A stretch of 64,000 bases of DNA from Gammaproteobacteria bacterium (GCA_022826885.1 JAJDUB010000070.1:49379-113378); one strand, 5' to 3'; shown: positions 22,555-40,748, counted from the first letter of the stretch. Translations and numbers: made by a program. The notes: generated from the letters alone by a model not told the origin.

Positions 22555-22564
22555 ATTTTAATAA

Positions 22565-23344
22565 TTAATAAATTAAATGCTTGTCGGGCAGCAACTGACC
22601 TATCCTCTGCGCTACATTGAATAATTCAGGCAGGTAGTTATCGATATTCCGGTCGTTGATGCGGGCTACATTGCCACCGAAAGTTACTGCAGCGATCGGA
22701 TGTTTATCAACGTTGAAAATCGGCGCCGCCAGCGTATACAGGCCGACTTCGAGTTCTCCGTCAACACGGGCATATCCCTGCCGCTTTACCAGTTCCAGTT
22801 CCTTGATTAAATCCGCTCGGGTGGCAATCGACTTCGGCGTGTAGCGCTTGAGCCTGACATTCCCCAGGTACGCATCGAGTTTTTCCGTGTCCTGGTGCGC
22901 CAGCATCACCCTTCCGGCAGCCGAAATACAGGCCGGCATGTGTGTCCCGGGATAAAACGTCACCTGGTCGAAACGATCGAACGAGCTGTGGGCTATACTG
23001 ACAATATCCTGACCATCCAGTACCGAGATCGCGCACGTTTCCCCAACCTTCTTGCTTGCGGCATTGATAATCGGTTGGACCACATCGCCAATCTGCATGG
23101 AAGCCAGGTAAGAAAAACCCAGGTCGAGCATTTTTGGCGACAACCGGAACCACTTGCCGTCGCTGGCCACATACCCCAGGGAAGTCAGGGTCAATAGTAC
23201 CCTCCTGGCCGTCGCCCGCGTCAAACCGGTTTTTGCGGCCACGTCCGCCGGAGACATTTCAACATCTTCAGCGTCAAACGCCGTGATGACTTTCATGCAG
23301 CGTGCGATTGAGCCGATGAAGTCTTTCGAGTCTTTTGAAATCAT
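22565..23344 (-). CDS. IclR-family regulator, PcaR/PcaU/PobR-like
   Basis: SIARCMKVITAF...GLTRATARRVLLTLTSLGYV...FRLSPKMLDLGFSYL HTH; GYARVDGELEVG effector-domain motif. Confidence 0.9.
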   Translation of the reverse strand: MISKDSKDFIGSIARCMKVITAFDAEDVEMSPADVAAKTGLTRATARRVLLTLTSLGYVASDGKWFRLSPKMLDLGFSYLASMQIGDVVQPIINAASKKVGETCAISVLDGQDIVSIAHSSFDRFDQVTFYPGTHMPACISAAGRVMLAHQDTEKLDAYLGNVRLKRYTPKSIATRADLIKELELVKRQGYARVDGELEVGLYTLAAPIFNVDKHPIAAVTFGGNVARINDRNIDNYLPELFNVAQRIGQLLPDKHLIY

Positions 23345-23410: not shown

Positions 23411-25456
23411 TTACTCCACCATTGCCTTCAACAGGGCATCCCTACCATCGGAATAAAATTGAATGTCAATTTTGGTAGCCATGTCATCGGACAAATCATA
23501 GAGTTGCCGACGGCAAGTAACTGGTATCAATAGTGCGGACGCACCTTTTTCAACCGCAGTCTCGGCAATCGTAACGGGGTTGTGAACAGGCTCGATAGAG
23601 CCACCCAGATTAATTTCTCCAACGATGATGAGACCTCCACGCACGCTTTTCTTCAATAAAGCAGTACATAGCGCGATGAGTGATGCCATGCCGAGTTTCG
23701 TACCGGACTTGGACGCATCGAAGGCTCGGAGTTGCGCAGTGAATTCGTGGTGTCGAGGTTCCTTGTCGCCGACCAATTGCATTGACCGCGCGTAAAGGTT
23801 TTGCTCGGCGTAGCCCATACTTTCCCTGAAGGCGGGGGGCACGGGCTTGTTGAGTATCTTGACACCAGTGCCCGGGCCTTCATTGATCTCAATGCGGTAG
23901 AGCCCCGGGTGTTCTTCACCGCCACCCGGCGAGATGGTCCAGACCTGACCCGGTTCAATGGGATCGCTGCCAATGCTGTTTTCGCTTTGCAGTTCCGGCG
24001 TCGAGACAAACTTTTCCACGCCATCGTCGCCCATTGCGTAGCTGAAGTGGGTGTTACGGAATTCCGCCGCGCCGATGCGTTTCTGCTGTTCTTTGACGCG
24101 ACGTCTTGCCTCCATGGCGATATGGACGGCCCACTCGATGTCCTCGTCGGCCACCTCGCCCTCGCCGGGATGGAGAAGCTTGAGTAGCCCACTCACAGTT
24201 TTGTTGACCGCATTTGTATCGCGGCCCGACAGAGCGCCACCGAAAAACACCCGGCCTTGCAGTACACCGACACGGCTTTGATTGCGGAGTTGACTCCAGC
24301 ACTCGGACAAGAAATCGCTCACAAGACCGAAGTGATTCGTCAAAAGCTCCCTGCTGATTTTGGGCACATCCCAGCCAGGCACATATGCGTGGATTCGATC
24401 CATGAATGCTGTGTCGTCTTTCATCTCGGGGGGCATGGGGCCAAACAGGTGACCAATGCGCTGCTGGTGTTCAACATCCACATCGAAGTTCCCAACCAGG
24501 ACGATGCTGCCATCGGCACGGATGCTTTCCTTGCCACGGCTGAATTCGCCGGCCTCCATGTATCCCTTCAGGATGTTCACACCATCTTTCTGATCGAAGG
24601 AGATGCCGGACACCTCATCGAAGCAGACCACATCGTATTGGCAGACCAATCCGCGCTGGCCGGTTGCGTTGTTGACGAACAATTTGGCAACTGTTGCTTT
24701 GCCACCGGAAATCAAGTGAGCATACGGAGAAACCTGCTGGAAGAGATGGCTTTTGCCAGTTCCCCTGGGCCCGAGTTCCACCAGGTTGTAATTTCTCTCG
24801 ACAAAAGGAACCATTCGCAGTATCAAGACATCGCGTTGCCGCAAAGATAATCCATTTGGCTCAATGCCGACGGAGCGAAGCAGAAACTCAATCCACTCAC
24901 CGGTAGTGAAGGACTTGCGGGTCTCTGCCAGGATATCGAGCACATCCCGTTTGGATAGCTGGATTTCCCGGAGCGACGCAACACCGAAGGGTCTTCCTTT
25001 ACTCTCCTGCGCGATAGACGCATCATAGTTCAGACTGATTTCGGCATAGAAGCCGCCTGTCAGCATCCGCTCATGTTCGTTCACCAGTTCGGGGCTGATG
25101 CGGACATCGGTCAGCCGCAAGCTCGGTAGTGTTGCGATGTAGGAGTCGGTTTTCGCATCCAAGCGAGCGGTAATGAGGTCGATGATTTTGATCTCGCCAT
25201 TTTCCCTGGTCCGGGCCTTGAAGAGTTCTTCTTCCCCGGCTTTGACCGTTCTTGATTTGAGTTGCCTTTGGACGATCTCAAGACCCTCATCGATCTCGTC
25301 CTGCTCGGTGCTGGCGCAATATCGGCCGAGTAGAAACTCGACTACGTACGTTGGCACCGGAAATTGACGGCTGAACGTTCGAACCAAATCCTTTCGAACT
25401 AAGTACCCGTCGAGCGAGGTAGCCGCCTTTTTGTCGATCTGGTCCATTTCAATCAT
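23411..25456 (-). CDS. brxL: BREX Lon-like AAA+ protein BrxL
   Basis: VPTYVVEFLLGRYC, NYNLVELGPRGTGKS Walker A, VVCFDEV Walker B, DTAFMDRIH; Lon-like C-terminus without the GPSAG catalytic motif. Confidence 0.93.
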   Translation of the reverse strand: MIEMDQIDKKAATSLDGYLVRKDLVRTFSRQFPVPTYVVEFLLGRYCASTEQDEIDEGLEIVQRQLKSRTVKAGEEELFKARTRENGEIKIIDLITARLDAKTDSYIATLPSLRLTDVRISPELVNEHERMLTGGFYAEISLNYDASIAQESKGRPFGVASLREIQLSKRDVLDILAETRKSFTTGEWIEFLLRSVGIEPNGLSLRQRDVLILRMVPFVERNYNLVELGPRGTGKSHLFQQVSPYAHLISGGKATVAKLFVNNATGQRGLVCQYDVVCFDEVSGISFDQKDGVNILKGYMEAGEFSRGKESIRADGSIVLVGNFDVDVEHQQRIGHLFGPMPPEMKDDTAFMDRIHAYVPGWDVPKISRELLTNHFGLVSDFLSECWSQLRNQSRVGVLQGRVFFGGALSGRDTNAVNKTVSGLLKLLHPGEGEVADEDIEWAVHIAMEARRRVKEQQKRIGAAEFRNTHFSYAMGDDGVEKFVSTPELQSENSIGSDPIEPGQVWTISPGGGEEHPGLYRIEINEGPGTGVKILNKPVPPAFRESMGYAEQNLYARSMQLVGDKEPRHHEFTAQLRAFDASKSGTKLGMASLIALCTALLKKSVRGGLIIVGEINLGGSIEPVHNPVTIAETAVEKGASALLIPVTCRRQLYDLSDDMATKIDIQFYSDGRDALLKAMVE

Positions 25457-27798
25457 GAATTATCTCCACCTATTACCGTGGCGATTTGCGCAACCAGCGA
25501 TCCATCAGTATCAATCAGTACAACTGTTGCTTCACGCCCCTCCATGTCCTCGTTCTCGACGACCACGGAGGCTGTTCCCTTGTCTTGAAGGAGCTTAACG
25601 CCGACGACCACACTGGATGAAGAATTGCCGGCTTGGCTGCGAACATCAAGTGATAAGTCCGAGAAGTTGCCATCCACGGCAACAGTGCAGCGCAAACCTT
25701 TCCACACCACGTCCGTAAATTCGACAGATGCCGCTGCCTGGGCAGATGCGCCTCGCGTTACCGTCAACTGCAGTGTCAGGCACTCTTGCAGGCTCAGGCC
25801 GCCATGGGTGTACTCTTCCCCTTTCTTGAAACAGCACACGCCATCAGCGAGGGCAAAATACTGGTTTGGATTCCAATACCATGGATAAAGCCGCTCCTCG
25901 GTCGAGGCGCCCGGCTTCAATGAGGCGCAGCGTCCCCATTTGCTTTCCACCAGTGCGCTGGGAAGTTCGATTTTTGGCAATCCTCCAGGTAGCAACAACC
26001 AGCCGTGATCCGTCACAACCCTAACGCGCTTCCAACCTGCCGCCAACAGTCCCATGATACGGTCTCTGATTTCCATAATCAGATCATCGATGTGCTTGGC
26101 TAGTTTCCATCCGCGGTCATGACCTTCGTGGTCGATGTTCCCAAATTCACACCATGCTCTGCCCTGGCCATCGCCATCAGTATAGTGTTCAAGGATCGAC
26201 CATCCCGCCTCGGTCAATAACTTCTTCAGATGGTAACCTCCCTTTAATGACTGACCGGTATCCGCTACCGAAGGCTCGAAATCAGGGCTGCCATCCACAT
26301 CCCGAATCTTGTCTCTCACTGGGGTAACTGCCGCCTTGCCTGTAGCAGTTACGCTAGGTAGGGCCGCCCAGGTCGGTTCCTCGGAGACCTCAAGCCCACA
26401 TGTATCCAGGTACTCGACCAGACGCTTTCCGGCATCGAAACGGAGTCCGTCGACGAACAGAACGCAGTCCCCGGGGCTGAAAGGCGTTTCCTTAACCGTC
26501 AGGTAGGTGCCTCCCGGGTAGGATGCGTTATCAACCAGTTTCTGGAGATAGCGGGCTGATTCTTCCACCCACGGCAAGTAAACGGATCGGATGGCGGTTG
26601 CCACGGCTTCAAAGTCAGCAGGACTATCCACCTGGGCCAAGGCCCGAATCACTCCGTCATCGACCCGCCACCCTTGACTGCGATAACCCGTTGCGAGATC
26701 GTCCACCGAACCTGCAGCAAGGCTGTTTTTCGTGCTTTCGGCAATGGTCGCCAAGTGTTCCAATGCGCAGGCCAAAGGGGCTTCGTCCAGTTCGGCCCAG
26801 ACCAAATCACGCCTGTGGCCGTGCTGTTTTTCCAACTCTTCAATCCTGGTTCTCGCTTCGTGCGGGGGCACTTTGTCAAGGGTCGTAAGTCTATGGCAAA
26901 GTTCTTTTTCTTGGATGTCATTCCATTGAGGCCAGCCCTCAGCCCCCTGCTCATCTTTGAACAGGTCAAATTCTGGCGGCTGACACCTTCTGATTTGAGC
27001 GGGGATGTTCGGATAGTGCTGAGGAGCCTCGCAGTAACGCTCCCAAACAGCCTGCCACGGGCCTTCGTGGTTTGCGAGCCTAGCGCTCCCGGCCAGAACG
27101 CCTTCGTTCCGGGGGTTGAAAGCCAGTTGGGATTTGCAGACCTCGACAAAGGCTTTCCATTCGTTCTCGCCACGACTTGCCTGGAAGGCATCCCCCTGAT
27201 CGAGCCATTGCAGCAGGTCGCGAATTGGGTCACCCGTCAACAGGGTGTTGAAGTAGTCCTTGTCCAGGCGCTTGCCTTTCAGTAAGGCGACATCCTCGTC
27301 AAGAAGCCGACGCAACGCAAGCTGCATTGCAATTTTGGCATCGTTGTCCTGGGCTACATCAAGCCCAAGCCCACCTTGATCTGATTTTAGATAGGCCAGG
27401 ACCGTCCAGTCCTTGGCATTTATTTGTGACCAGATCACGCCTCGGTATTGCAACTCGGCAAGCGGCTTCAAGTGATCCGGGCAGCTTTCGATTGCTCGCA
27501 GGTCCTGGCGGCTGACGCCTGGGAGATAAAAAATTGGCGTCCGGTCCTCAGGCGGAGATACATCCGGAACCTGACCGGCAATCACGCAACGTAACCAGAG
27601 GGCAGGCCCGATACGCTTTTCGGGCGCATAGTCACCCAGGGTCATGAGTTCAGGCAGTTCGGCCTGAAGAACGGGTATGGCAGCCTCCCACTGACGGTCA
27701 CGATCCGGCCAGAGAATACAGGCCGGAGCTACCTGAACCTCGGGATTGAAGACTGCGGCATCACGGACTGCTTTCAGGAGATGATCGAGCAATCTCAT
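25453..27798 (-). CDS. pglZ: BREX PglZ (alkaline phosphatase-like; type B-like)
   Basis: VLFVDGLRFD, AALPSVTATGK, NIDHEGH, VVTDHGW and YTHGGLSLQEC PglZ motifs; directly upstream of brxL (ATGA overlap). Confidence 0.92.
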   Translation of the reverse strand: MRLLDHLLKAVRDAAVFNPEVQVAPACILWPDRDRQWEAAIPVLQAELPELMTLGDYAPEKRIGPALWLRCVIAGQVPDVSPPEDRTPIFYLPGVSRQDLRAIESCPDHLKPLAELQYRGVIWSQINAKDWTVLAYLKSDQGGLGLDVAQDNDAKIAMQLALRRLLDEDVALLKGKRLDKDYFNTLLTGDPIRDLLQWLDQGDAFQASRGENEWKAFVEVCKSQLAFNPRNEGVLAGSARLANHEGPWQAVWERYCEAPQHYPNIPAQIRRCQPPEFDLFKDEQGAEGWPQWNDIQEKELCHRLTTLDKVPPHEARTRIEELEKQHGHRRDLVWAELDEAPLACALEHLATIAESTKNSLAAGSVDDLATGYRSQGWRVDDGVIRALAQVDSPADFEAVATAIRSVYLPWVEESARYLQKLVDNASYPGGTYLTVKETPFSPGDCVLFVDGLRFDAGKRLVEYLDTCGLEVSEEPTWAALPSVTATGKAAVTPVRDKIRDVDGSPDFEPSVADTGQSLKGGYHLKKLLTEAGWSILEHYTDGDGQGRAWCEFGNIDHEGHDRGWKLAKHIDDLIMEIRDRIMGLLAAGWKRVRVVTDHGWLLLPGGLPKIELPSALVESKWGRCASLKPGASTEERLYPWYWNPNQYFALADGVCCFKKGEEYTHGGLSLQECLTLQLTVTRGASAQAAASVEFTDVVWKGLRCTVAVDGNFSDLSLDVRSQAGNSSSSVVVGVKLLQDKGTASVVVENEDMEGREATVVLIDTDGSLVAQIATVIGGDNS

Positions 27799-27801
27799 GT
27801 G

Positions 27802-28440
27802 TTATCTCAAGGCTTCAAGTTGCTTTACCCAGGCATCAAACAACGGGCATTCTCCACGAATGATGTCCAGACCGATGTCCAGGGCAATCAGGGAGCCGTG
27901 AGCAACTTTATCATAGGCGTCACAGACTGCTAGGATTCGCTTGGAAGGGGCAGTATCCCGGTTGTCATTAATATGTTCTGGCGAAGCAAAATTATTCTTG
28001 ACACTATTTAATGTTTCTACAATATAGGCATCATCAAACCACTTGGCGAAAGCAGTGGGGTCACTAAACAGCAAACTTTCAAATTCATGCACTACAATAT
28101 TTGAAATGAAGTTACGCCGGTCTATGTCTTCCTTAAATGCACCTTCAACAGCTTTAGCTCTAGCGAACGAGTCTCCTGTTGACGTCATCGCCGGAAAGTC
28201 ACTGGGGAGTCCATAGAAATCCAGCATGGTTGTCACCCAGGCAGTGTTGTCCTCCTTACATTTTCTTTCAACTTGTCGTTTGATCTTGGCATAAGATGAA
28301 ACTCCTCCTTTTCCTTGTGGCCCCGTGCGAATTATGATTGGTGTAAGCCAGATATTCATACGCTGAAAATACGGCTGAAGAACTTCCCGAACGAATACAT
28401 CCTCGGTCTGCCCCTCGCAAAAAACATGCACACGGGTCAT
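27802..28440 (-). CDS. DUF4276 family TOPRIM-like protein
   Basis: RVHVFCEGQTE (TOPRIM-like Glu), MLDFYG, HEFESLLF, PEHIND...APSKRI and CPLFDAW; ATGA-coupled to the upstream ATPase. Confidence 0.8.
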   Translation of the reverse strand: MTRVHVFCEGQTEDVFVREVLQPYFQRMNIWLTPIIIRTGPQGKGGVSSYAKIKRQVERKCKEDNTAWVTTMLDFYGLPSDFPAMTSTGDSFARAKAVEGAFKEDIDRRNFISNIVVHEFESLLFSDPTAFAKWFDDAYIVETLNSVKNNFASPEHINDNRDTAPSKRILAVCDAYDKVAHGSLIALDIGLDIIRGECPLFDAWVKQLEALR

Positions 28441-29522
28441 CGTGTCGGCCTCCCACCCAGAACATTCTTCTGCCAGAGTTCGCTCAGCGAATACTCATTG
28501 AGCCAACTTTCCAATGCCTCGGAGTTAAGTCTATGAAGATGAGAAACCCCCTCAGTTCGGTCAGCCACAATTACATCATCTGGCGAGAACTCATTCAGAA
28601 GATCCGTGGACTGAGTCGAAACGATGATCTGACGTGTTTTGGAAGTAGAGCGCATAAGAGATGCGAGCAGATTGATTGCGAATGGGTGCAATCCGAGTTC
28701 CGGCTCATCGATTAGTATGGTTTGTGGTTGAAATTTCTCAGGCTGCAACAACACGGTAGCCAAGCAGATAAACCGCAGGGTGCCGTCAGAAAGAAGATGG
28801 GATTTGAAGGGCACGTCTTCACCTTCTTCTGTCCACTCCAGTTCAATTTGATCTTTATTGTCTGGTTGGGGTCGAAGTAAAAAGTCCCCGAAGAACGGAG
28901 CAACCAAACGTATCGTTTTTACAATTCGTGTGTAGTGTAATGAATACTGATCTTTAAGTAACGAAAGAAAGGCGGCCAGATTACGGGCATCCGGGCGCAG
29001 GTAAAGATTATCATTGAGTCCATGTCTCTGTTTTACTAAAGCGCTATCACTAGTGTCATGAAAATGATAAAGGCGCCAACTTTTCATTGCAGGTACTGTG
29101 AATTTATATATGCGCGTATTGAGCTTCTGTGACTCTACTTCGGATTCAAAGTGCCCGGAGCTGATATGCCAGTTCCCTCGAACGTTCCACCAGAAATTTT
29201 CCTCAGCAAACATCATGCGATTATCCTGGGTCGGTTCCAGCATGAAATTGTAACCGTTATTACCAAAATAAAGCTCTGCGCTCAGATTTTCCGTATTCTT
29301 CCGGCCAAAATGCAGTAATGCATCCGGTCCACCTTGCTTGCTTACATAGAGCTGTAGTTTGCCTTCCAGCATCTGTTGGATCAGGCGAAAAAAGCCAATA
29401 AAGTTGGATTTTCCGGCTCCATTAGGGCCAATCAAAACATTCAGCTCTTTCAGTTCCACGTCACACTCTCGTATAGACTTAAAGCCTAGTAACTTGATTC
29501 GGGATAGTTGATACTGATTCAT
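28437..29522 (-). CDS. ABC-type/AAA_21 ATPase (COG4637-like)
   Basis: GPNGAGKS Walker A, LSDGT signature, ILIDEPELGLHP Walker B/D-loop, STQS switch. Start re-called to MNQYQL after an AGGAGG SD. Confidence 0.88.
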   Translation of the reverse strand: MNQYQLSRIKLLGFKSIRECDVELKELNVLIGPNGAGKSNFIGFFRLIQQMLEGKLQLYVSKQGGPDALLHFGRKNTENLSAELYFGNNGYNFMLEPTQDNRMMFAEENFWWNVRGNWHISSGHFESEVESQKLNTRIYKFTVPAMKSWRLYHFHDTSDSALVKQRHGLNDNLYLRPDARNLAAFLSLLKDQYSLHYTRIVKTIRLVAPFFGDFLLRPQPDNKDQIELEWTEEGEDVPFKSHLLSDGTLRFICLATVLLQPEKFQPQTILIDEPELGLHPFAINLLASLMRSTSKTRQIIVSTQSTDLLNEFSPDDVIVADRTEGVSHLHRLNSEALESWLNEYSLSELWQKNVLGGRPTR

Positions 29523-29617
29523 GTTTGCTCCTCCTGTGCTTGCGTAGCGCATTTTTCGGCTTGGTTAAAGTGGTAGTCGTTAATGCCGTCGCCGTTGAAT
29601 AGATTGTTGAAAGGCAT
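29519..29617 (-). pseudogene. Degenerate duplicate of the pglX 3' end (32-codon mini-ORF MPFNNLFNGDGINDYHFNQAEKCATQAQEEQT)
   Basis: Aligns without gaps to the PglX C-terminus PWYHLFRGDRINDHHLTLTEKRAAR. By hand count 36 of 46 nt are identical (29548-29593 vs 33179-33224). Its TGA overlaps the ATPase ATG. Confidence 0.75.
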
Positions 29618-29619: not shown

Positions 29620-32600
29620 TCATTCGTCCTCCCGTTTGTGTTCAGCAATAATCCGTTTAGCCTCTCGGTCATAGCTGTCCGCCAAGTCTCGCAGGGTAAC
29701 GGCAAATCGCTGAAACCCCGCGTTCTCTATTTCCTCGGCTTTATTTCGGAACTGTTCTGCCAGTTCTCTCTCCGGCTTGCCGGATGGGTCAACCTCATGA
29801 ACGCCGCGAGAGTTGAATGTTCCTGTTCCAAAGCCATTGCGCAACTTATCAGCCTCACGATCATTGAGTTCTGTAGCGACAGCGCGGTGTATCCACAATC
29901 CGTCCGGATCCTCTGGGGCATGAATCAACACTTCACCAATGTTAATAAGCGCAACTTCCAGGTGGCCGGATTCCGTACAGATGAACTTTACGCGCTGGAG
30001 CCATTCGGTAAAGCGCTCTTCGCTGAAAGTTCCATCCTTTTGAGTTCCTGGTGGCGTTTTCCACTCACGTAGCAATCGCCAGGCATTTGTTGCAATTGCC
30101 TTTGCTTCTTCTGTGGGTTCCTTAGGAGGCTGATCTTCTTTCTTAGAGCGGTAGATCAGTTGGATTGCTTCGCAAAAGAACTCGGGGTCGTTGGCCAGCC
30201 TGCTTTCAAGGAGCCGGGGGGTGGCTCCTCTATGGCCGTCTAATATGGGTAGATATGCCCACTCCACTCTAAACAGGTCGTCTTGGATAACCGAAGAATC
30301 TGCCTGCAGAAACTTGATCAGTTCGACGACTTGATATCCCCTTATGGAATAGGTCGGCTCAGGGGAAGAAACTGCAGCGATCAATGCTCGAACACATTGA
30401 TCGATATCAATTTCCTGCTCGGCTTGGCGTATCCTGTCAAGGCAATAGATTGCCGCATACGGTCTGCCATGGTCAATGAGTTTTTCAATAGCAACGGTAA
30501 GATCGCTATCAGCCTGATAAGCATTGGCGCCCGTACGGGTCCAATATTCTCCTTCATGCTCCTGAAGCCATTTAGAAGCGCGGTCCCATGCCTCCTTTGT
30601 AAATGGCAAGCAGGTCAGGAATTGTCCTATTTGCTCTGACGTCCAACCTGATTTGTCGATATTGTCGCACCAGTTCCAATCTTTGACGTGGTAGCGTCGA
30701 CAGATAAAACCGCTCGTAAATGCCTTGCGCTTGTTGTCCGGTGCATCCAGAAATTCAGGTAAAAGAGCCTGCTCAATTACATCGTCGACAATAACGCCAA
30801 GAGCGTATCCCACCTTTCTTGCTGAGGTAACGGTTTCAGCAAATCGGATGACACCCTCGACACGATTTTTCTGGAAGATTTCCGATATGGCCTTATCCCG
30901 CCTCGCGTCGAGTTTCTTTTCCTGCTCTTTCCAATCGCCATTCTCCTCGTAAAGATCAAAGTCATCATCAGTAAAAAGGTGCCGGTACAGGTTTGACGGA
31001 TCAGTCGGAGCGAGTTGCTCGGCAACTAGCCCAAGGCGGGAAATCGAGTCCTCAGGCAATGCCCATTCTGTATCGGAGTACCGTCGGTGTTTGTGTGTGA
31101 CTTGCGTGAGGTGCTCCCAAAACGATAACCGTTGCTCTTCGGGAAGTTCGGTAACAGGTTGTGAGGCAAGGACTCCGATAAGTTGCTCGAAAGCTGGTTG
31201 AGGCAGTTTGTCAAAATGGTCGATTAACTCGGAAAGTCGTTCGATGTCATGGTCGGCGGCAATAACCGCAAGCTCCGCGTAAAAGGAAACCTGTTGCCAG
31301 TATTCCTGCTGCGTTACATTTTCTTTCCAGTTATCAGGAATTGTCTTTCGCCAGCTTGGTTTGTGCGAGCCGGAAGAGATCCGGTATTGGTCGGGAAGCA
31401 GTTGAATGAGCAGAGTCCAGGCGATATCAGGCCATTCGTTCAGAAGTGTTCGCACCGCTGTCTTGCGCTTGTCAACAGATGCGAGCGTTTGCGGAAGCCA
31501 GGGAAGTAATATGGTTATAAGCGAATTGGACGGACGATTGCCCCATTGACCCCCAGGGTCATGGCTGGCAAGTTCACCAAGCACAACGCAAACCCGAACA
31601 AGATATTGTTCATCCCAAGCCAGGCCTTCCAGCGCCCACAGCAGGCCGGTCAGATAGTTACCGCCGGTGATGCCGTCTCCTTCCTGGGCAAAAAGTTCGA
31701 AAAAAGGGCAAGGTGTCAGGCGCAACGCTTTCTCGACTGCATCAAGAAATTCACCGGGGGCTGCTTCTGCCAGATTGGGCAATAATCTTTCCAAGCTGCC
31801 CCACAGTATCCAGTCAGCATCAGACAGAATTTCACGCAAGACTAATAAACAAGTCGTTTCAACTTTCCCTTGCGAGCATTTGCTGAATGCATCGGGCGTG
31901 CTACCTAGAATGGCCAAACCCTCAGCGACTCCTTTACGCAAAACGCGCGAACACTCCAACACTTTGCCCTGGATACTCGCCGTATATCGTTCTTCTGCGG
32001 GTAGCTCAAAAGCGGGGTCTGGCTCTTTTAACACGGATATAGCTAACGACTTGAAGGTGTCGATGTCCTGATCAAGAATGCGTGCTCCCAGCAGGCTTAG
32101 AAGTTCAACTCGATTGACAACTTTCCAGATGCCGTTGTTGAGAGACAGAGGGCTGTCAGGGCTGAGCAATATTTCACGCGCCTTCTTTAGCCATTCGTCA
32201 TAGCTGATGCCGAGGAGTTGAGCAATCGTATCACGGTCACGTTGACCCTTTTCATCCCAGGCACCAATCAACACAGATAGGGCCAGAAAGGTGGCATCAG
32301 AATGTTGCGCCCTATCAATCGTAGGTTTCTCTTGGGTCGCCTCGAACTCCTCGGGTATTTTCGCCACTGCTTTTTGCTCGAAGGCTTCCAGCAGGTCTTC
32401 CGGTAGATTGTCGGGTGTGATGGTTCCAGCATCCTGATTCCATGTTTGTACGAAATCAACAACTTGTGACCAGACCCGTTGCGGATGCTGCTGCTGGAAT
32501 TGAGAAATGTGGGAATGTAACAGAGACAGGACAACGCCAAACTCGTTGCCGAGATCGTAGCCGAGTAAATGGAAGTGTTTCAAGAAGTTGTAGAGGTCAT

Positions 32601-33159
32601 CCCTTGTAACCTCTTTGTCGTCGTTAGCTGCTTTCAGGTGGTGTTGAATGACATCAAGTTTCTCAGTGCTCTTGGATGGGCTGAAATTCGACTGCTGGAC
32701 GTTCCTGAAAAACTCATCAACGTTTTTGGTGTGCCTTGCCTGGTTCAACAGCCATTGCACGTTGTGTGCATCGGTCGCGTTGAGCGGGCCTGTGATCAAC
32801 GCGATGATGTCCTTGTCTCTTGTGAATACCTTGGGATTATTGAAATCATTCCAGGCGGCTTGAATAACCTCCTTGAACGAAACGCTACTTTGGATTATGG
32901 CAATGGAATGCTTGACCTGGCCAAGAAGTTTCCGTCGCTCCCTATTGCTTGGGTTTTCTACGACAACTACAAGATCGTCTGTGTCGAAACCATCGATCTT
33001 GCCCTGAAGTTTGATTTCCGTAATAGGCCAGCAGGGAAGACAGGGGGCATGCCCGCCGGTGAGCATCAATGTGACAAAAGATGCCTGCACATGCGCTTCA
33101 AAATGAGGGCCGCCACCACCAGTTGAAAAAGGATTACTGAGGTTTTTACTCTTGCTCAT
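29620..33159 (-). CDS. 1179-aa protein with N-terminal PD-(D/E)xK (Cap4/Mrr-like D...QxK) nuclease domain and long, apparently helical C-terminal region; putative defence effector
   Basis: STGGGGPHFE...DTDDLVVV...LLGQVKH nuclease-like motif; no Walker A seen; ATGA-coupled to the pglX stop. Confidence 0.65.
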   Translation of the reverse strand: MSKSKNLSNPFSTGGGGPHFEAHVQASFVTLMLTGGHAPCLPCWPITEIKLQGKIDGFDTDDLVVVVENPSNRERRKLLGQVKHSIAIIQSSVSFKEVIQAAWNDFNNPKVFTRDKDIIALITGPLNATDAHNVQWLLNQARHTKNVDEFFRNVQQSNFSPSKSTEKLDVIQHHLKAANDDKEVTRDDLYNFLKHFHLLGYDLGNEFGVVLSLLHSHISQFQQQHPQRVWSQVVDFVQTWNQDAGTITPDNLPEDLLEAFEQKAVAKIPEEFEATQEKPTIDRAQHSDATFLALSVLIGAWDEKGQRDRDTIAQLLGISYDEWLKKAREILLSPDSPLSLNNGIWKVVNRVELLSLLGARILDQDIDTFKSLAISVLKEPDPAFELPAEERYTASIQGKVLECSRVLRKGVAEGLAILGSTPDAFSKCSQGKVETTCLLVLREILSDADWILWGSLERLLPNLAEAAPGEFLDAVEKALRLTPCPFFELFAQEGDGITGGNYLTGLLWALEGLAWDEQYLVRVCVVLGELASHDPGGQWGNRPSNSLITILLPWLPQTLASVDKRKTAVRTLLNEWPDIAWTLLIQLLPDQYRISSGSHKPSWRKTIPDNWKENVTQQEYWQQVSFYAELAVIAADHDIERLSELIDHFDKLPQPAFEQLIGVLASQPVTELPEEQRLSFWEHLTQVTHKHRRYSDTEWALPEDSISRLGLVAEQLAPTDPSNLYRHLFTDDDFDLYEENGDWKEQEKKLDARRDKAISEIFQKNRVEGVIRFAETVTSARKVGYALGVIVDDVIEQALLPEFLDAPDNKRKAFTSGFICRRYHVKDWNWCDNIDKSGWTSEQIGQFLTCLPFTKEAWDRASKWLQEHEGEYWTRTGANAYQADSDLTVAIEKLIDHGRPYAAIYCLDRIRQAEQEIDIDQCVRALIAAVSSPEPTYSIRGYQVVELIKFLQADSSVIQDDLFRVEWAYLPILDGHRGATPRLLESRLANDPEFFCEAIQLIYRSKKEDQPPKEPTEEAKAIATNAWRLLREWKTPPGTQKDGTFSEERFTEWLQRVKFICTESGHLEVALINIGEVLIHAPEDPDGLWIHRAVATELNDREADKLRNGFGTGTFNSRGVHEVDPSGKPERELAEQFRNKAEEIENAGFQRFAVTLRDLADSYDREAKRIIAEHKREDE

Positions 33160-36100
33160 TCAGCAGCCTTCCGTGCGGCGCGTTTTTCGGTCAGGGTTAA
33201 GTGGTGGTCATTTATGCGGTCGCCTCTAAACAAGTGGTACCAGGGGGCGGATTCCACGTCCTTGCCGCGGTCCTTGTTCCATTTGATGTTGGGTTTGTCG
33301 CGCAGGACGCCTGCGCCTTTTTTTCCGACATCAGGTACGGTAAGGAAGGGGCGGATGTTGAGGCGTACCCCGTCGTTCAGGTCAGGGTCCCAACCGATGG
33401 GTTGCTTTTCCAGCGGTTTCCAGCGCACGAAGATGTCGTAGGGCTCTTCGCCTTTGAGGATCAGTTCCAGCTTTTTCTTGAGGCTCTCTGCGGCGTCTAG
33501 GCGCTCTTGGGCTCCGTCCACGCCACTGGCTATGTCCTGCTTCTGACGGCTGATCCAGTCACCTAAGTAGGTGTAAATCAGGGTCTCCAGCAGCTTGGCG
33601 TCGAGCTTGTGGTAATTGACCAGCGCGGCGAAGCCGTCGCGCAGGCCATCCCAAATGTGCCAGATGAAAGGGCGATGTTGAAACAGTTTGCAGTGCTGAG
33701 TGAAGAATTTCTCCCGTAGCCAGGTTTCCAGTGTTTTTCCCGTGTGATCGACGCTCTTCAGTAGCGCGGGCAGGGTTTCGTTGGACCAGGTATCACCATA
33801 GGCAGCGGCCAACAGGTTCAGTAAGCGGTCGGAACCAGAAGCCTCGCCTCGCACCGGTGGAATGCAGACGATGCTGTCATCATCGGCGAAGTTTGCAAGG
33901 ACTTCGCACTGCTTGACATATTCACGTTGTTCGTCGGCCAGCTCCATGCTGGCATCCAACTCGGCAGGCCAGCAATAGCCGAGGAGGCGAGCGACGGCGA
34001 CGTGTAGCACGGTGTAATCGGTACGCATCGGGCCGAGGTCAGTCCATTTCTTATCCTCATCCCAGACCACACAGCCGCAGGGGTGGCCGTGAAAGATCCA
34101 TTGGGTGGGATCATTGGAGTAGGGTCTTGGCAGGCCGTTAGGATATCTCTCTTTGGCGACCCCGCTCCAGTGGTCCAAGTCGAAGGGAACCTTGACCAGT
34201 GTGGCGTTAGTAACATTCAACTTTTGATCGATGCAACGAACATCATCGTTGTATTCAGGGCTCGAGCAATAGCACCAAAGAGCTGGAAGTACCTCTTTGT
34301 GCTTTGGAAGAATTACACCGATATTTGAATCAAATTTATTCCCAATGTATAGCGCTGACGGCAGCACACGCATTTCGCTGACGGCTATCCCCCATTTCCC
34401 CCAAGCAGAGTTCCCTCGCTGATCGGAATCATGGAGTCGTTCTCGCCTGAAATCACCGGGAAGACGCATATGTCCGTTAACATCGTCATATTCGATTACT
34501 TTTTCAAGGCCACCAAAATGGGTTGTCTCAATAACAGTACCCTGCTGGTAAACAAAGTACTTACCTTTGGTGAAAAACTCCCAGTACTGCCTTTGAAACC
34601 GAGGTGAGTCGCCATTCAGAATCCCTGCTAGGCCATCTGCACTTTCTTTCAATAAGTTGTGCCCAGAAGGCTCACTAAGGATTATGGTGTTATCAGGATT
34701 CTCCAACTGCTTCGCCTGCTCGACACTCTTGATCTCCGCTGTCAGCAACTGTGCGGCTTTCTCGGGAGCGGTGCGGGGTTCAGAAACATCCATGCCGCGA
34801 ATCAGGTTGCTGTCTTCGGCATTACCAAACATCCCTCCCGATTCTTTTGTTGAGTTGCCACTGCTAAGACTGATCATTGCCACGAAAGCACCTGCTGCGG
34901 CTGTTGAATCAAAGCCACCTTCTCCCAACCGGGCAACCAGATGCCAGGTGTCATTTTTCAGCAGCTTCTCACGAAATTTCTTATAACTGGTCAGGAAGAG
35001 CCAATTCTGTGGCAATACAATGCTAGAGGTGCCACCGTCGATGCAGAATTCCAGGCAGCGATCGAGGAATACGGTCGCCAAATCATTTTTTGCGGCAGAA
35101 TAAAATCTTTCGCAAAAATCGCGCAACCGCTCATTTTGCTTGCCTCTCGCAAGATAAGGCACGTTAGTAATTACCCATTGATAGCGCCCAGCGAGCAAGG
35201 TCGCGGCCTTGGCCAGCCCCTGGGCCACAATGGCAACTTCCTGCTGCTCTTCGCTTTGTTCCTGTTTCAGTGCCTGTTCCAGTGCGCTTGAGAGATCATT
35301 CCACTGCACCAGCTTAGAAGCGTCCGATTTTGCTGGATTAAGCAGACTTCCCAGGACCGGTGCATTCTTGAAGGTGTCGTGCAGCCAATCCATTGCAATG
35401 CGCAAGTTGTGTTTGCCCATTGCCAACTGTTTCCATTCCTCCTTGGCGACGCTCACGGACAAGCCGGAGCAGGCAACATTCAATTCCGGCAACACGCGGT
35501 AGCCGCCAGTCCCAGGGTATTTCCAGGCGGTCAGCGCCAAGGCAAAGGCGGCCAATTCCACGCAACGTTGATCCAGTTCCAGGCCATGGATGTTTTCTCG
35601 CAGTACTGCGTCCACTGACTCCTTGGCCGAAAGGCTGTCGCGCACCATGCGTATCGGCACGAGCATCAGGAATGCCGCCACCAGAAAGTGGCCTGAGCCG
35701 CAACAAGGGTCGAGAGTCTTCAAGTCGGCAAGTTGCTCCGGCCAGCCGTCAAAGGTTCCGGCCGCTGGTGTCCAGGCGCCATCCTCCTGCTGCACAAAGC
35801 GCAGATATTCAAGCGGTACGCCGGGGATGGACGCTTTCTCGCGCAATTCATTTTCGCTGCTGGCGTTCTTGAGGTCGAATACGGTGAGCCGCTTTCCCGC
35901 CCACCAAGCTCCCAGAGAGTTATCGAGCAGGAAGCTGACCATGTAGGGTTCGGTAAAGAGCTGGGTCACGGCGGGCAACTCCCGTGCGCCGATCTTGACC
36001 TCGGAAGCGTTGACTTCATCCTTCTTTTTGGCCTGCCAGAATTGATAGACCCAGCCGAGACTGTCGGAGGCAGTGAACACCTCCGGCGGCAGGTCGGCCA

Positions 36101-36614
36101 CCAAGCGTTCCAGTTTTTGTTGGTGCTCCGGCGGTAGGACAATTTGGAAGACCGGCGAATCGAGCTGGAAGATCTGTGGCAACATGCGGGCGGCGAAACG
36201 GGCAGCCAGTTCCCAACCGTTGGCCGCGCCTTCATCTGCGGCAAGGTCTTCACACTCTTCGAGGGTGACAGCCACCGGCCCATCCGGGTCCGGATACATC
36301 AACAGATTGTTCTCGGCCAGGAAACAGGCAAACAGCATTCGGTGCCAGTGCTCGTAGGAGACTTTTTCTATAAGAAGATCGGTAGCCTGTTCACCATTCG
36401 GTTTACGGCGGTCGCCTAACTGCCGTCCATGCACTCGCAGACGGCGACGCAGGACGCGATCCGATTCGTTGAGATGTGGATATGGGGCAGTTTCCCTGAC
36501 GCCAAGCTGTTCCAGTGCCGCCTGGGCAGCTGCTTCGGCAATATCACGCGCGTCCTTGACGGTGCGCTCAAGTCGATTTCTTAATGTTTTGTCCAGCGGC
36601 TGCATGTTCTTCAT
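33156..36614 (-). CDS. pglX: BREX adenine methyltransferase PglX (BrxX)
   Basis: TQLFTEPYMV, LDPCCGSGHF (motif I), ITNVPY (NPPY-like motif IV), RPFIWHI and PDLNDGVRLNIRP. Start may be MQPLD at 36605. Confidence 0.9.
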   Translation of the reverse strand: MKNMQPLDKTLRNRLERTVKDARDIAEAAAQAALEQLGVRETAPYPHLNESDRVLRRRLRVHGRQLGDRRKPNGEQATDLLIEKVSYEHWHRMLFACFLAENNLLMYPDPDGPVAVTLEECEDLAADEGAANGWELAARFAARMLPQIFQLDSPVFQIVLPPEHQQKLERLVADLPPEVFTASDSLGWVYQFWQAKKKDEVNASEVKIGARELPAVTQLFTEPYMVSFLLDNSLGAWWAGKRLTVFDLKNASSENELREKASIPGVPLEYLRFVQQEDGAWTPAAGTFDGWPEQLADLKTLDPCCGSGHFLVAAFLMLVPIRMVRDSLSAKESVDAVLRENIHGLELDQRCVELAAFALALTAWKYPGTGGYRVLPELNVACSGLSVSVAKEEWKQLAMGKHNLRIAMDWLHDTFKNAPVLGSLLNPAKSDASKLVQWNDLSSALEQALKQEQSEEQQEVAIVAQGLAKAATLLAGRYQWVITNVPYLARGKQNERLRDFCERFYSAAKNDLATVFLDRCLEFCIDGGTSSIVLPQNWLFLTSYKKFREKLLKNDTWHLVARLGEGGFDSTAAAGAFVAMISLSSGNSTKESGGMFGNAEDSNLIRGMDVSEPRTAPEKAAQLLTAEIKSVEQAKQLENPDNTIILSEPSGHNLLKESADGLAGILNGDSPRFQRQYWEFFTKGKYFVYQQGTVIETTHFGGLEKVIEYDDVNGHMRLPGDFRRERLHDSDQRGNSAWGKWGIAVSEMRVLPSALYIGNKFDSNIGVILPKHKEVLPALWCYCSSPEYNDDVRCIDQKLNVTNATLVKVPFDLDHWSGVAKERYPNGLPRPYSNDPTQWIFHGHPCGCVVWDEDKKWTDLGPMRTDYTVLHVAVARLLGYCWPAELDASMELADEQREYVKQCEVLANFADDDSIVCIPPVRGEASGSDRLLNLLAAAYGDTWSNETLPALLKSVDHTGKTLETWLREKFFTQHCKLFQHRPFIWHIWDGLRDGFAALVNYHKLDAKLLETLIYTYLGDWISRQKQDIASGVDGAQERLDAAESLKKKLELILKGEEPYDIFVRWKPLEKQPIGWDPDLNDGVRLNIRPFLTVPDVGKKGAGVLRDKPNIKWNKDRGKDVESAPWYHLFRGDRINDHHLTLTEKRAARKAAE

Positions 36615-36744: not shown

Positions 36745-39700
36745 CTATCTGATCGATACCGGGCCTTTGGCCAGCGCAGCCTTGAGTTGGCCCTTCACTT
36801 CTTCTGCCCAGTCATCGATTTCGTCGTCCGTTTTCAGGGTGGGCCGGCGCACATTCACAAACTGAATTTTGGGTTCGCACAACTCGGCAGCGCGAACCGC
36901 GACATTGTCAAAGCGGCCGGGCAGCGCCGCAACGCGGTCGGTGAACATCGACAAACTGCAGCGGTCCAAGGTAATCAGTACATCGCTGGATGATTGCACC
37001 GCTACTGTGGGCCGGTCAGACAAGGTGAGTCGCTGTTCGGACAACAATAGATTCCGCTGCTCGGGCTCTAACTGTTGCCAGTTGCCGTCGTCTGCAAGAC
37101 GTTGCATGCCCTGTTCGTGACGGTAGGCATATTCTTCATCGAGCTTGTTGAGCTCACCCCGCAGCAGTTGGGTCAGGTTGGCGATCAGCGGCGCGGTCGG
37201 ATCCGGGTCCTCGAGAAGCTGGCGCTGATGCTCAATGGTATTCACTTGGGCCAGGATAACCTCTGCGTCCTGAACCCCGGAGGCGTGATCCATCAGGCGC
37301 GTCAATTCGTTCCAGTTGGGCCAGCGTTTGGCGATGCGTTTGCCGAGATCGTCCCAGTTATCAATGCGGTCGCTCAGTTCATCTCGCTGGTTGTAGAGGG
37401 CAAGCAGTTGCTCGTTACCCGCCGTGAGGCGGATTTCGTCAAGGGACGCGGTGTCCGGCCGAGCCGGTTTCGGCGCCTCGCCACCAGCCTGGTCGGCGAG
37501 CCCCAGCATTTTCTTCAGGAATTCCTGCACATCCTTCAATTCCTGGCCCGGATTGGCCGAGAGCCCTACCTTTGACAGCAGCTTGCGGATATCTATCCGT
37601 TGGGCAGTGGTGACGGTGGCGGATTCCACCTTGAACATCACTTTGCCAATGGTTTTGCGCTCCAGGTCCGTAGATTCGAAGGCCTGGCCGCGCTCGTCTT
37701 GTGCCTGGATCAGCCCGACCACCAACAAAACTTGTAATCCACCGTCCACGGCGTCGCGTGACCATCCGTAGGGTGCAGACTCGAACTCGGTGCGGATGTC
37801 CGCGCCTTTTTTGCCGCCGGCGATTAAACCGAGAATGGCTTTGCATACTGGGTTCCTGGTGGGTTCACCTTCATCGCCTACGGCCTTGAGTGCGTCGGGA
37901 GCGCCTTTCCGGGCCTTTTCATAAACCTTGGACCAGCCCTCGTCGTCAGCGGTGTGAAACTGGGGATAGAGTCGTTGCAGCGAGTTATTGGAGGCTTCCA
38001 GCACCATCTCCTGTAGATCGTTGCCGAGGATTTCGTTGCCGCCGCCCTGAAAGACACGTGCTCCGGAGAAGACATCTTCGAGCAGTTCATGAATCTTGCC
38101 TTCGGCCGTCTGCCTGGTGGTCTCCATGGCCGCACGGGCCTCGGCGCCTTCCGGGCCATTGGGAACACCGCGCTTATCCAGCGTGGCTACGGCAGCCTTG
38201 TAGTCGATGAGGTGGTAGCGAAGGTCATCGGCCGAGCGCTTGGGAATGAACACAAAAACGGTCGGTGACTGATTGCCCGCTTGCCTTGAGTCGGCCCGCA
38301 CCGAGTTCTCGTCAATGCTCCACCCGTCACGAACCCAGACAGAAATGCGTTGATCGGCGTCGGTCGGAAGCTGGGCGTCAAACACCGGAAAAATGTCACG
38401 GGTGACCTTCGAGTTGCCTTGGGTCAGAGAAAGTTTGCGCACCATCTCGCCGAATTTCTTGTGGATGCGGTCGTCGCGTTCTACTTCGATGTGGTGCGCT
38501 TCGTTGGACAAGGCAGAACGTTGACTCAGGAATTCGTCGCTCCAGGCCGCGCTCTCTTCGGTCTGGATGCGGTATTCGTTACCGACCTTCATCAACAGAT
38601 CGCAATTATCAAGCAGGCTTGGCAACTTGCTGCGCAAACTGCTGCTTCCGCCAGAAAGGTTTTCGACCAGTAGATCGGCGAGGGTATCAATGGTGGCCTG
38701 GATACCGATTTCATTGTTCTGGCTGCCGAGCTTGTTGATGAGGAATACCAGGCCGCAGGCGCGCGCCATAAGCTGTTCATCTTTCGTACCCTTATTCCAG
38801 GTCATCGTCTTTTCGTGGACCTTGCGCGGCAGAATGCGCGATTGGAGCAATTTGTCGGCAGAGTCGAAATAGAGATAGTCTGCCGGTACAACATGGCCTA
38901 GGGGTTCATTCAGGTTAGTTTGGATAACCTTGTGAACCATGCTGAGCTGGTTACGTAGCTGGCTGTCGGTTCCGGTCTGATCCAGGACCCGGAGGGTATT
39001 TTCCCAGAAACGCCGGCGTACCGGCAGGATGGGATAGTCCTGGGGGAAATGCTGAATGTCGTCCTGTCTGTGACCGATGCTTGTACCTGCAAGATGCCGG
39101 GAGATCTCGCCCAGGTTGGTTTGCATGATCTGTTCGATGGGCGTCTTTGCTTCCGGCTTCTTGGCCAGAATGACCTGGCGGATGACCGCATCGACGTCTG
39201 CATCGGAGAGTTCCACACGGATGGTAAACCGCGCCTCAAGCTTTTTCAGGTTGCTGGTGCCTGTCACTGCCGTCTGGCCGGTGCCGATGAAGAGCAGTTT
39301 GCCGCCAATATTCTTGCAGCAGGCTTCCACCGCCTCCTGTACGTCGATGGAGCGCTGGCTGTCTTCGCCTATGTACTGTTGCACCTCGTCAAGCGCCACC
39401 AATGTCAGCGGGAATTTGCCGTCCTTCGTCAGCGCCTGACGAATAGCCTTTAGCATGTCATCGCTGGAAACATCCTGAACGTAAGGGTAGAGGTTATTCA
39501 GGGTCTCGACGCAGGATGCGGGTGATGAAAAGAGCCCGGGCTTCGCCTGAACGAGGGCGTCATGAAGGCCCTCAGCCACGTAAAAGTTGTCCAGTTCTTC
39601 GTTCCAGTCGTAGTCGTTCCGCTCAACATGGGCACGGACCTGGTCATGGATTCCTTCTTGCGTGAGCCACATGACGAAGCGGGCGACAGGGTATTGCTCA

Positions 39701-40182: not shown

Positions 40183-40196
40183 TATCAAACCCTTAT

Positions 40197-40748
40197 TCAA
40201 TATTCTTTGTCCGCAGTGATTGGTACAGCGAGATAATTCCACCCGTCATAGCCATCCAGTAGCCTGTAGTTGTTGTCCTCAAAACTGCCCGGGAAGAAGA
40301 CCAATAGCCTTCCGGTGACCATGGGGGCTAACTTGTCGACGACTTCTTTCACCTTCAAAAAGCCGAAGAGCGACCCGACACCTTGAATTGCCACGACGGA
40401 ATTCGCTCCGGTGTCGTTCTCTTGAAGGAACTTCTCAAACTCATCGGCGATGAAAGCAGGGTACTTCGGTAGCAACGTGGAGAGCAAATGTGGCTCCTGG
40501 AAGTAACTCCTGGCGTACCGTTGTGAGGCGAGCCAATTGGCAAAGGTATCCGTCAGGTCGAACATGGCCCACTCATGGTTTGCCTGTCGCGTGACAATTT
40601 CAAATTCACCGACTTTAGCCCGCAATGAGCGTTCTTCGTTTTCGTTGTAAACACAGAAGATCACGCGCTGTGCAGCAGCGGCATCATCGCGCCACGGGAT
40701 GGAGATATATTTGCTGTACGATTGTATAAGCCGTTTAATTCTGCTCAC
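40197..40748 (-). CDS. brxB: BREX protein BrxB (DUF1788)
   Basis: GVGSLFGF...GRLLVFFPG...YRLLD...NYLA motifs; size and position directly before brxC. Confidence 0.85.
   Translation of the reverse strand: MSRIKRLIQSYSKYISIPWRDDAAAAQRVIFCVYNENEERSLRAKVGEFEIVTRQANHEWAMFDLTDTFANWLASQRYARSYFQEPHLLSTLLPKYPAFIADEFEKFLQENDTGANSVVAIQGVGSLFGFLKVKEVVDKLAPMVTGRLLVFFPGSFEDNNYRLLDGYDGWNYLAVPITADKEY

Follow-up and report, generated by a model that had tools for sequence, protein, structure and literature searches.

A predicted Cap4-type nuclease joined to an Avs8A-like helical body in a type 1 BREX operon: a likely phage sensor-effector without an NTPase

Introduction

Avs8A belongs to the PD-lambda-4 system (Vassallo 2022), since renamed Avs8, and is a STAND nucleoside triphosphatase (NTPase) with an Mrr head that is reported to bind HK97-fold major capsid proteins and subsequently to cut DNA (10.1101/2025.07.02.662641). 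A second preprint confirms that Avs8 senses the major capsid protein, and adds that the sensors of Avs7, Avs8, and Avs10 differ in architecture and that the Avs7 sensor is also found in proteins without a STAND NTPase, for example Dsr1 (10.64898/2026.01.04.697583). The STAND-less design, in which an immune head is joined to a helical sensor, has already been published in the form of Dsr1, DSR2, and Vulcan; the last of these is reported to unite a NIR head and HEAT repeats in one protein and to provide a defence for which a phage protein is the trigger (10.64898/2026.09.04.749371). The subject of the present study is a protein that falls within this class of single-protein sensor-effectors. It is encoded on the minus strand at positions 29620..33159 of a 64,000-nucleotide stretch from a Gammaproteobacteria bacterium (GCA_022826885.1, JAJDUB010000070.1:49379-113378), which is referred to at its full length as the window; the gene and its product are called the target.

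The target lies within a type 1 BREX operon, and is likely to be a single-polypeptide phage sensor-effector that operates without an NTPase, with a Cap4-type nuclease head and an Avs8A-like sensor body. An initial annotation, made from the window alone, had described a single large gene encoding a candidate anti-phage effector, and the interval is indeed occupied by one open reading frame (ORF) of 1179 amino acids. The whole protein was modelled with AlphaFold2 (mean predicted local distance difference test score, or pLDDT, 85.9; predicted template-modelling score, or pTM, 0.70), and its features are as follows.

29620..33159, minus strand: target ORF, 1179 amino acids and stop, ATG start; full-length homologues align from residue 1
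32365..33159, minus strand: predicted Cap4-type PD-(D/E)xK nuclease head, residues 1-265, from fold and motif
33097..33099, minus strand: E21, conserved acidic residue of helix 1, at least 90% conserved
32974..32979, minus strand: D61-D62, just ahead of strand 63-68; D62 invariant, D61 at least 90% conserved
32911..32919, minus strand: Q81-V82-K83, the (E/Q)xK motif ending strand 75-83; Q81 and K83 at least 90% conserved
32305..32364, minus strand: low-confidence linker, residues 266-285, with pLDDT below 50 at 266-268 and 272-278
32110..32304, minus strand: winged-helix-like module (H-E-H-H-E-E), residues 286-350, elements at 289-347, from the secondary structure of the model
30235..32109, minus strand: ARM/HEAT-like alpha-solenoid and putative sensor, residues 351-975, from generic solenoid matches
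30292..31788, minus strand: stretch aligned with Avs8A, residues 458-956, from the hhalign comparison of profile A5
29623..30234, minus strand: C-terminal helical domain, residues 976-1179, pLDDT 84-96

Results

The nuclease head

The target has no match at E<=0.01 in Pfam, PADLOC-DB 2.0.0, or NCBIfam 20.0, and a search of a protein atlas returned only unnamed clusters of hypothetical proteins. Because no curated sequence model recognises the head, its membership of the nucleases rests on fold and motif. The initial annotation had drawn attention to an E...DD...QVK pattern within the N-terminal ~260 residues, and this pattern is present as FEAHV at residues 20-24, DTDDLV at residues 59-64, and GQVKH at residues 80-84. 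Across 93 aligned relatives (34-55% identity), D62 and Q52 do not vary, while G14, G17, F20, E21, Q25, D61, Q81, and K83 are conserved in at least 90% of the sequences. The placement of E21, D61/D62, and Q81-x-K83 in the predicted structure is the usual PD-(D/E)xK layout.

Modelled alone, residues 1-270 reached a pLDDT of 97.2, and the fold proposed in the initial annotation was recovered in structure searches. A Foldseek search returned LmuA (9hr5_A, E 1.6e-5), Cap4 (6wan_F, 3.4e-5), and Avs3 (8dgc_A, 3.4e-5), and all matches with a Foldseek probability of 1.00 were immune nucleases, including HamA (8zue_A) and the Cap4 of E. cloacae. In an independent search of 48,161 chains, families of the Cap4/LmuA/Avs3/HamA type took the top places with Z scores of 10.8-14.8, of which Avs3 gave 14.8 (VIA structure search), and every other family scored 8.3 or less. 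Pairwise VIA-align superpositions of the head gave the following values, where rmsd is the root-mean-square deviation.

LmuA: Z 13.9, rmsd 3.5, 210 residues
Cap4: Z 12.9, rmsd 4.8, 203 residues
HamA: Z 11.1, rmsd 4.1, 189 residues

By its predicted structure, the head is thus a Cap4-type (DUF4297-like) PD-(D/E)xK nuclease domain, with predicted activity. A nuclease fold and a D...QxK motif of the same kind are likewise found in CBASS Cap4 and Lamassu LmuA. Cap4 depends on a SAVED domain and on a cyclic-oligonucleotide synthase, and LmuA on LmuB and LmuC. Identity with CBASS Cap4 was rejected, as the C-terminal part of the target is all-helical and contains no SAVED domain, and as the operon consists of BREX and HEC-01 genes with no CD-NTase among them.

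The target also shares its head fold (that of Avs3 8dgc_A), together with the logic of an effector coupled to a repeat sensor, with Avs3, Avs7, and Avs4-like proteins. For two Avs4-like proteins from the same genus, the homology of the head is evident in the sequence itself: residues 6-252 recur there, at 24-29% identity, on longer proteins which carry STAND/AAA signatures and match Avs4 in PADLOC.

L010, 9278-14203: Avs4-like STAND protein, 1641 amino acids, same genus
L011, 6543-11927: Avs4-like STAND protein, 1794 amino acids, same genus

When the family profile was compared with these two proteins by hhalign, the match was restricted to the head region (99.1% and 98.1%). There are nevertheless clear differences, since Avs3, Avs7, and the Avs4-like proteins oligomerise by way of an ATP-bound NTPase, which the target does not possess, and the TPR sensors of the Avs4-like proteins are unlike the body of the target.

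The helical body and its relation to Avs8A

The region that follows the head had been described initially as Trp/Leu-rich, apparently helical, and free of a GxxxxGK[ST] motif, and the model upholds this description. Residues 286-1179 contain 3.1% Trp and 11.5% Leu, with Trp occupying many invariant columns of the alignment, and residues 350-1179 are modelled as helices and loops, with no strand of three or more residues, and hence no β-sheet, beyond residue 347. A regular-expression search of the whole protein found no [GA]xxxxGK[ST], GK[ST], or hhhhD[DE] motif. The modelled body therefore has no NTPase, nor does it leave room for a P-loop fold. The linker that precedes it falls in the least conserved stretch of the protein (identity 0.28 over residues 251-300); the C-terminal helical domain, with an identity of 0.41-0.51 in 50-residue windows, is a candidate for a role in autoinhibition or assembly. 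Fold searches with the body produced only generic matches of the ARM, HEAT, PUF, and karyopherin type, at the noise level for solenoids (Z 6-9), and no chain of Avs7, Avs8, DSR2, or Dsr1 was among the matches listed. Sequence searches of the PDB with the target, the family profile, and the Avs8A profile gave nothing meaningful.

A more specific relationship emerged from the comparison of sequence profiles, which was carried out with hhalign without secondary structure. The Avs8A profile (A6) comprised six PD-lambda-4A/Avs8A proteins, 19-72% identical to the first of them, drawn from 11 matching genomes among 201 searched. It was compared with three profiles of the target family that differ in the heads of their members.

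A5, mixed heads: 96.7%, E 4.2e-10, 474 columns, target 458-956 against Avs8A 556-1072
A1, nuclease-headed members only: 96.8%, E 3e-10, 473 columns
A4, members with other heads only: 97.5%, E 4.9e-12, 581 columns, starting from Avs8A 437

The three matches are collinear; as the profiles overlap, the comparisons are not fully independent. Reversal of either profile gave a best E value of 0.18-0.26, and the TPR sensors of the two Avs4-like proteins, used as a further control, did not match the target body (best E 0.036). A weak match to the body of one paralogue with a helix-turn-helix (HTH) head was also given by the PADLOC PD-Lambda-4_A model (E 2.9e-4), which at E<=0.1 matches 3 of 40 diverse family members. 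Between the family and Avs8A, hhalign found no match of heads or of an NTPase, and the C-terminal domain of the target (976-1179) lies outside the A5 alignment.

Taken at the level of sequence profiles, the body is a remote homologue of the part of Avs8A that follows the NTPase, namely the winged-helix domain (WHD) and the sensor. Whether the WHD is included depends on the A4 comparison, the only one of the three in which the winged-helix-like module aligns with Avs8A 437-503; this alignment is suggestive of a retained WHD. The Avs8A segment ends in WRAILPH, and the corresponding stretch of the family contains no His.

The target and Avs8A are alike in general plan: both are large single proteins that begin with a nuclease head and end in a helical sensor, and the sensors are homologous at the profile level; both families are also highly conserved and horizontally spread. 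They differ in that Avs8A possesses an Mrr-type head and a P-loop STAND NTPase (GLSGVGKT in the six sequences), whereas the target has a Cap4-type head and no NTPase, and the part that they share is only ~15% identical. The likeness of the target to a characterised system goes no further than a distant homology with a single Avs8A domain. The initial annotation had suggested an Avs-like receptor which has lost or lacks its STAND module. Kinship with Avs proteins is borne out on two counts, through the head shared with Avs4-like STAND proteins and through the remote homology of the body to the Avs8A sensor. As regards membership, the N-terminal effector and the C-terminal repeat sensor of an Avs protein are present, but the STAND NTPase with its Walker A and B motifs is not.

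One locus in an Enterobacteriaceae-family genome (L084, 1441-9920) brings the two families side by side. Here an Avs8A gene (1957-5808, minus strand), with a 156-amino-acid ORF downstream, lies head-to-head with two ORFs on the plus strand (6175-8184 and 8127-9920) that jointly match the body of the target family. This pair may represent a split or two-gene relative of the target body beside Avs8.

Exchange of heads on a common body

The body (residues ~290-1170, ~890 amino acids) recurs in the family behind heads other than the nuclease. Among the 150 best representatives, the nuclease head is present in 108 and absent from 42, and in 30 of the latter there are at least 80 residues ahead of the body, as against fewer than 80 in the remaining 12. 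Those 30 fall into four clusters, of 13, 4, 3, and 3 members, and seven singletons. Pfam models identified SIR2_2 in four of the 42 proteins, and GT4-conflict, SLFN_AlbA_2, FRG, DUF4062, PNP_UDP_1, Abi_C, Metallophos, and TIR_2 in one each; the Metallophos-headed protein belongs to the 13-member cluster. Judged by these matches, the head repertoire of the family is that of abortive-infection effectors. The SIR2-headed members match SIR2 models such as Aga_SIR2 and ThsA in PADLOC, and no DSR model was among the best 25 of the 30 PADLOC families matched.

Within the genus of the target, the body is also found, at 28-33% identity, at the end of three proteins of 1355-1366 amino acids that begin with an HTH_3 domain followed by ~400 unassigned residues.

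L007, 9939-14039: HTH_3-headed relative, same genus
L008, 9948-14042: HTH_3-headed relative, same genus
L009, 10143-14210: HTH_3-headed relative, same genus

The HTH-headed paralogues found on plasmids, in Rhizobium and others, are annotated as 'helix-turn-helix transcriptional regulator' or 'HigA family addiction module antitoxin'.

Distribution of the family

A word-indexed search scored 7999 candidates, of which 1483 are relatives at E<=1e-3. An exhaustive search of 1.84 billion representatives recovered 6766 clusters at E<=1e-3, of which 3131 reach E<=1e-30; the count of 6766 includes proteins with only the N-terminal head in common. An ORF with so many relatives is a genuine gene rather than a product of chance. 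The best 120 relatives are 73-95% identical to the target and 1059-1196 amino acids long; all that bear a name are called hypothetical protein, and their sources include Gammaproteobacteria, Planctomycetes, Chlorobium, and Syntrophus. Among the loci collected, the identity to the target is 74% in Synechococcus, Anaerolinea, and Verrucomicrobia, 75% in Spirochaetaceae, and 66% in Bacteroidetes, and in loci with methanogen names it is 61% (Methanocalculus) and 45% (Methanoregula). Occurrence within the genus itself is sporadic: 5 of 41 genomes, the present one included, match any part of the target, and the full architecture is found only in its own genome.

Some of the relatives lie on mobile elements. 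In PLSDB, 41 plasmid records match, of which 16 are conjugative. A single record reaches a query coverage of 80% or more; it is a conjugative plasmid of Shewanella baltica, on which the gene follows an 'Abi family protein' and a 'super-infection exclusion protein B'. Of 5426 complete E. coli genomes, 15 match and seven hold a full-length copy annotated as hypothetical protein, and the one copy inspected lies between IS1 and prophage tail-fibre genes. The phage record collection contained no match to the target. The target stretch itself is present near-whole (0.92-1.00 of sampled words) in three sponge-metagenome runs, one of which is possibly the source of this DNA, and partially in two more (0.44 and 0.26); no RNA run was among the runs listed as holding it.

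Carriage on plasmids and in prophages, the high conservation across phyla, and the naming of the HTH-headed paralogues as regulators or HigA antitoxins could be accommodated by a non-immune role, in which the target would be a nuclease for the maintenance of, or addiction to, a mobile element, or a scaffold or regulator of DNA transactions, and the body would bind proteins of the host or of the element. Such a role is nevertheless unlikely. The SIR2, TIR, DUF4062, PNP, Schlafen, Cap4 nuclease, and Abi_C heads make up an abortive-infection repertoire, the body shares homology with a sensor proven to recognise phage protein, and the gene is embedded in restriction-modification and BREX operons.

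Genomic setting

The operon in which the target is found is organised as follows.

40735-41664, minus strand: brxA, BREX
40197-40748, minus strand: brxB, BREX
36745-40242, minus strand: brxC, BREX
33156..36614, minus strand: pglX, BREX methyltransferase upstream of the target (Pfam Eco57I, N6_Mtase, MmeI_Mtase)
33156..33159, minus strand: ATGA, 4 nucleotides shared by the stop of pglX and the start of the target
28437-29552, minus strand: HEC-01A, AAA_21/AAA_15/SMC_N ATPase (PADLOC E 6.7e-155)
27802-28440, minus strand: HEC-01B, DUF4276 (PADLOC E 5.3e-84)
25453-27798, minus strand: pglZ, NCBIfam BREX-1 type B
23411-25456, minus strand: brxL, BREX
41680-44422, minus strand: def, fmt, and rsmB, housekeeping genes
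21421-23344, minus strand: IclR regulator and MFS transporter, outside the island

These genes form a type 1 BREX operon in which two further cassettes, the target and the HEC-01 pair, stand between pglX and pglZ. The ATGA overlap between pglX and the target is predicted from the sequence to couple their translation. The target is separated from HEC-01A, on the same strand, by 67 nucleotides, and the HEC-01A and HEC-01B ORFs overlap each other by 4 nucleotides. The GC content is 0.539-0.565 in the BREX core (brxC, pglX, pglZ, and brxL), 0.501 in the target, and 0.454 in HEC-01A/B, and these differences suggest that the three have separate origins. The target appears to be an independent defence cargo of the pglX-pglZ slot, beside a second and unrelated cargo pair.

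The BREX island as a whole measures 18 kb, and is flanked by rsmB of the def-fmt-rsmB cluster on one side and by the IclR regulator and MFS genes on the other. A tRNA scan of the window came back empty, and none of the ORFs scanned was recognised as an integrase. The brxA ORF, with a GC content of 0.476, below that of brxC and pglX, encodes 309 amino acids, of which the PADLOC BrxA model covers only residues 48-306; either its start has been called too early or an N-terminal extension is present.

To place this arrangement in context, the neighbourhoods of 50 homologue genome loci were compared; many of the contigs are short, such that the neighbour counts are lower bounds. No cluster of flanking ORFs occurred in more than 6 of the 50 loci, so that the gene has no conserved neighbour and stands alone. 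BREX genes were found in three loci: L025 and L045 contain genes like those of the window, and L028 contains a 41%-identical brxL. In the other 47, no BREX protein was detected (tblastn, E<=1e-5), nor were homologues of HEC-01A/B detected by tblastn in any of the 50. Type I restriction-modification genes flank the homologue at eight loci (L032, L034, L036, L037, L038, L040, L044, and L051), and at L040 the order is hsdS-target-hsdR. The identities of HsdM, HsdS, RhuM, and HsdR were confirmed by Pfam with one representative per cluster, and a Pfam tally of the neighbours within two genes, taken over the 109 of 166 that were at least 170 amino acids long, gave Methylase_S 6, RhuM 5, and ResIII 4.

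The position of the target between pglX and pglZ, with its start overlapping the pglX stop, raises the question of whether it is dedicated to BREX. In this case it would be a nuclease recruited or activated by BREX or, as the initial annotation had proposed, a type IV enzyme like BrxU, which would cut the modified DNA of phages that get past BREX. The junction with pglX recurs in L025, where the overlap is the identical 4 nucleotides and the homologue is followed directly by pglZ, and in L045 the homologue occupies the same pglX-pglZ slot. Furthermore, a 2026 survey reports that BREX loci can harbour PD-(D/E)xK nucleases, which it terms 'backup effectors' (PMC12839542). Like BrxU, the target is an additional nuclease carried within a type 1 BREX locus. 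The distribution of the family is, however, that of a gene which moves from one defence hotspot to another: against the three loci with BREX stand the other 47, among them type I restriction-modification operons, together with plasmids and prophages. In addition, Pfam reveals no modified-base reader and no ParB/DUF262 or HNH domain, the body carries NADase and other heads that do not act on DNA, such as SIR2, TIR, and PNP, and the GC content of the target departs from that of the core. A BREX-dedicated accessory is for these reasons very unlikely, and the BrxU-like part of the initial annotation is not supported. Formal identity with BrxU/GmrSD was rejected as well (no DUF262/ParB or HNH/DUF1524 match, a different fold, and no specificity for BREX), as was a role as a core component of type 1 BREX (no BREX model match, and no BREX genes in 47 of 50 homologue loci).

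It is even less probable that the target acts as the LmuA-like nuclease of a Lamassu-like system under the control of the adjacent HEC-01 ATPase pair, which is of the ABC type. LmuA is the best structural match of the head, and HEC-01A, which matches AAA_21 and SMC_N, is the next gene on the same strand. Yet tblastn detected the pair in none of the 50 loci, the L025 homologue leads straight into pglZ, HEC-01A/B forms a separate pair in PADLOC, with strong matches, the GC contents of the pair and the target differ (0.454 and 0.501), and no PADLOC Lamassu model matches the target. Identity with Lamassu was rejected on the same absence of a PADLOC match, together with the lack of a conserved SMC-like partner and the occurrence of HEC-01A in 0 of 50 loci.

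Three homologues are split in two ORFs (L016, 575+548; L027, 842+334; and L033, 120+928 amino acids), and that of L045 lacks approximately the first 190 residues, which truncates its nuclease head; these cases may reflect either gene decay or faulty assembly. Such homologues might point to a remnant, catalytically dead or in decay, that travels as a passenger of the BREX island. This is scarcely credible for the target: its copy in the window is uninterrupted and full-length and has 95% identity with the closest relative, its catalytic residues are conserved, and both structure models are confident.

Discussion

The target is likely to be a phage sensor-effector of one polypeptide, and several published proteins share its design. 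By analogy, the closest published precedent for its Avs8-like sensor is Dsr1, which carries the Avs7 sensor. In both Dsr1 and DSR2 (SIR2 and HEAT), an immune head is fused straight to its sensor, which is of Avs type or made of HEAT repeats, and no NTPase intervenes; compared by description only, they differ from the target in that their head is an NADase rather than a nuclease, and their sensor lineage looks different. Vulcan (NIR/DUF4062 and HEAT), likewise compared by description, resembles the target in its NTPase-free union of a head and helical repeats, and the target family does include one DUF4062-headed protein, P0233. Proteins of the family with a DUF4062 head are rare: PF13271 occurs in only 2 of the best 120 homologues of P0233, and none of 401 Enterobacteriaceae-family genomes encodes a DUF4062-plus-body protein.

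In the resting state, the solenoid would keep the nuclease head inactive. Upon infection, it would bind a phage-made protein, possibly the major capsid protein, and binding would free the heads or assemble them, as occurs with Cap4, LmuA, and Avs3/7. The heads would then cleave DNA and bring about abortive infection, adding a layer that acts when BREX fails. The capsid protein as the trigger is suggested by analogy with Avs8A, and must be regarded as doubtful. In a complex prediction between residues 365-1020 (A1) and the lambda major capsid protein, the scores were 0.05 and 0.13, compared with a mark of 0.32, a result that speaks neither for nor against this trigger.

A broader proposal is that the body derives from a receptor of Avs8 type by loss of the NTPase, and is the WHD and sensor of that receptor turned into a mobile unit. 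The family would then be an ATP-independent receptor superfamily with at least ten heads, namely Cap4 nuclease, SIR2, TIR, NIR, PNP, Schlafen, metallophosphoesterase, GT4, Abi_C, and HTH, which detects a conserved phage structural protein such as the HK97 capsid, and in the target the ligand alone would switch on the nuclease with no need of nucleotide exchange. This proposal is tentative. The family to which it refers comprises thousands of 50%-identity clusters from bacterial and methanogen genome records, and has no name in the libraries and literature searched.

Several observations weigh against the assignment of the target as a phage sensor-effector related to Avs8A. The link to Avs8A is remote, with an identity of 15%, a profile of six sequences, and coverage of about half of the body. 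At this level of sensor identity, specificity for the major capsid protein is not transferable, and the protein sensed by Vulcan, for its part, is a small one of lambda. For a protein that has no NTPase, a route to oligomerisation is yet to be demonstrated. The degree of conservation (73-95% across several phyla in the best 120 relatives, and 61% in Methanocalculus) is unusual for an immune sensor, and the annotation of the HTH-headed paralogues as regulators or a HigA antitoxin means that the body is not proven to be immune-only. Most homologue loci contain no recognisable defence neighbours, an observation which is weak in either direction as many of the contigs are short, and a scan for promoters and terminators gave nothing above chance. 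Finally, no publication that names or tests this family was found in the literature searched.

If the target is indeed a sensor-effector, it belongs to a very large and widely transferred immune family which is invisible to the copies of Pfam, NCBIfam, and PADLOC used here, and whose inspected E. coli and plasmid copies carry the annotation 'hypothetical protein'. In this event, an Avs-type sensor would drive a Cap4-type nuclease without the STAND ATPase that is thought to power oligomerisation, and a comparison of Avs8A with the target family would make the contribution of the NTPase testable. The pglX-pglZ junction of type 1 BREX is, moreover, a cargo slot that holds two unrelated defence cassettes, which bears on how layered immunity is assembled.

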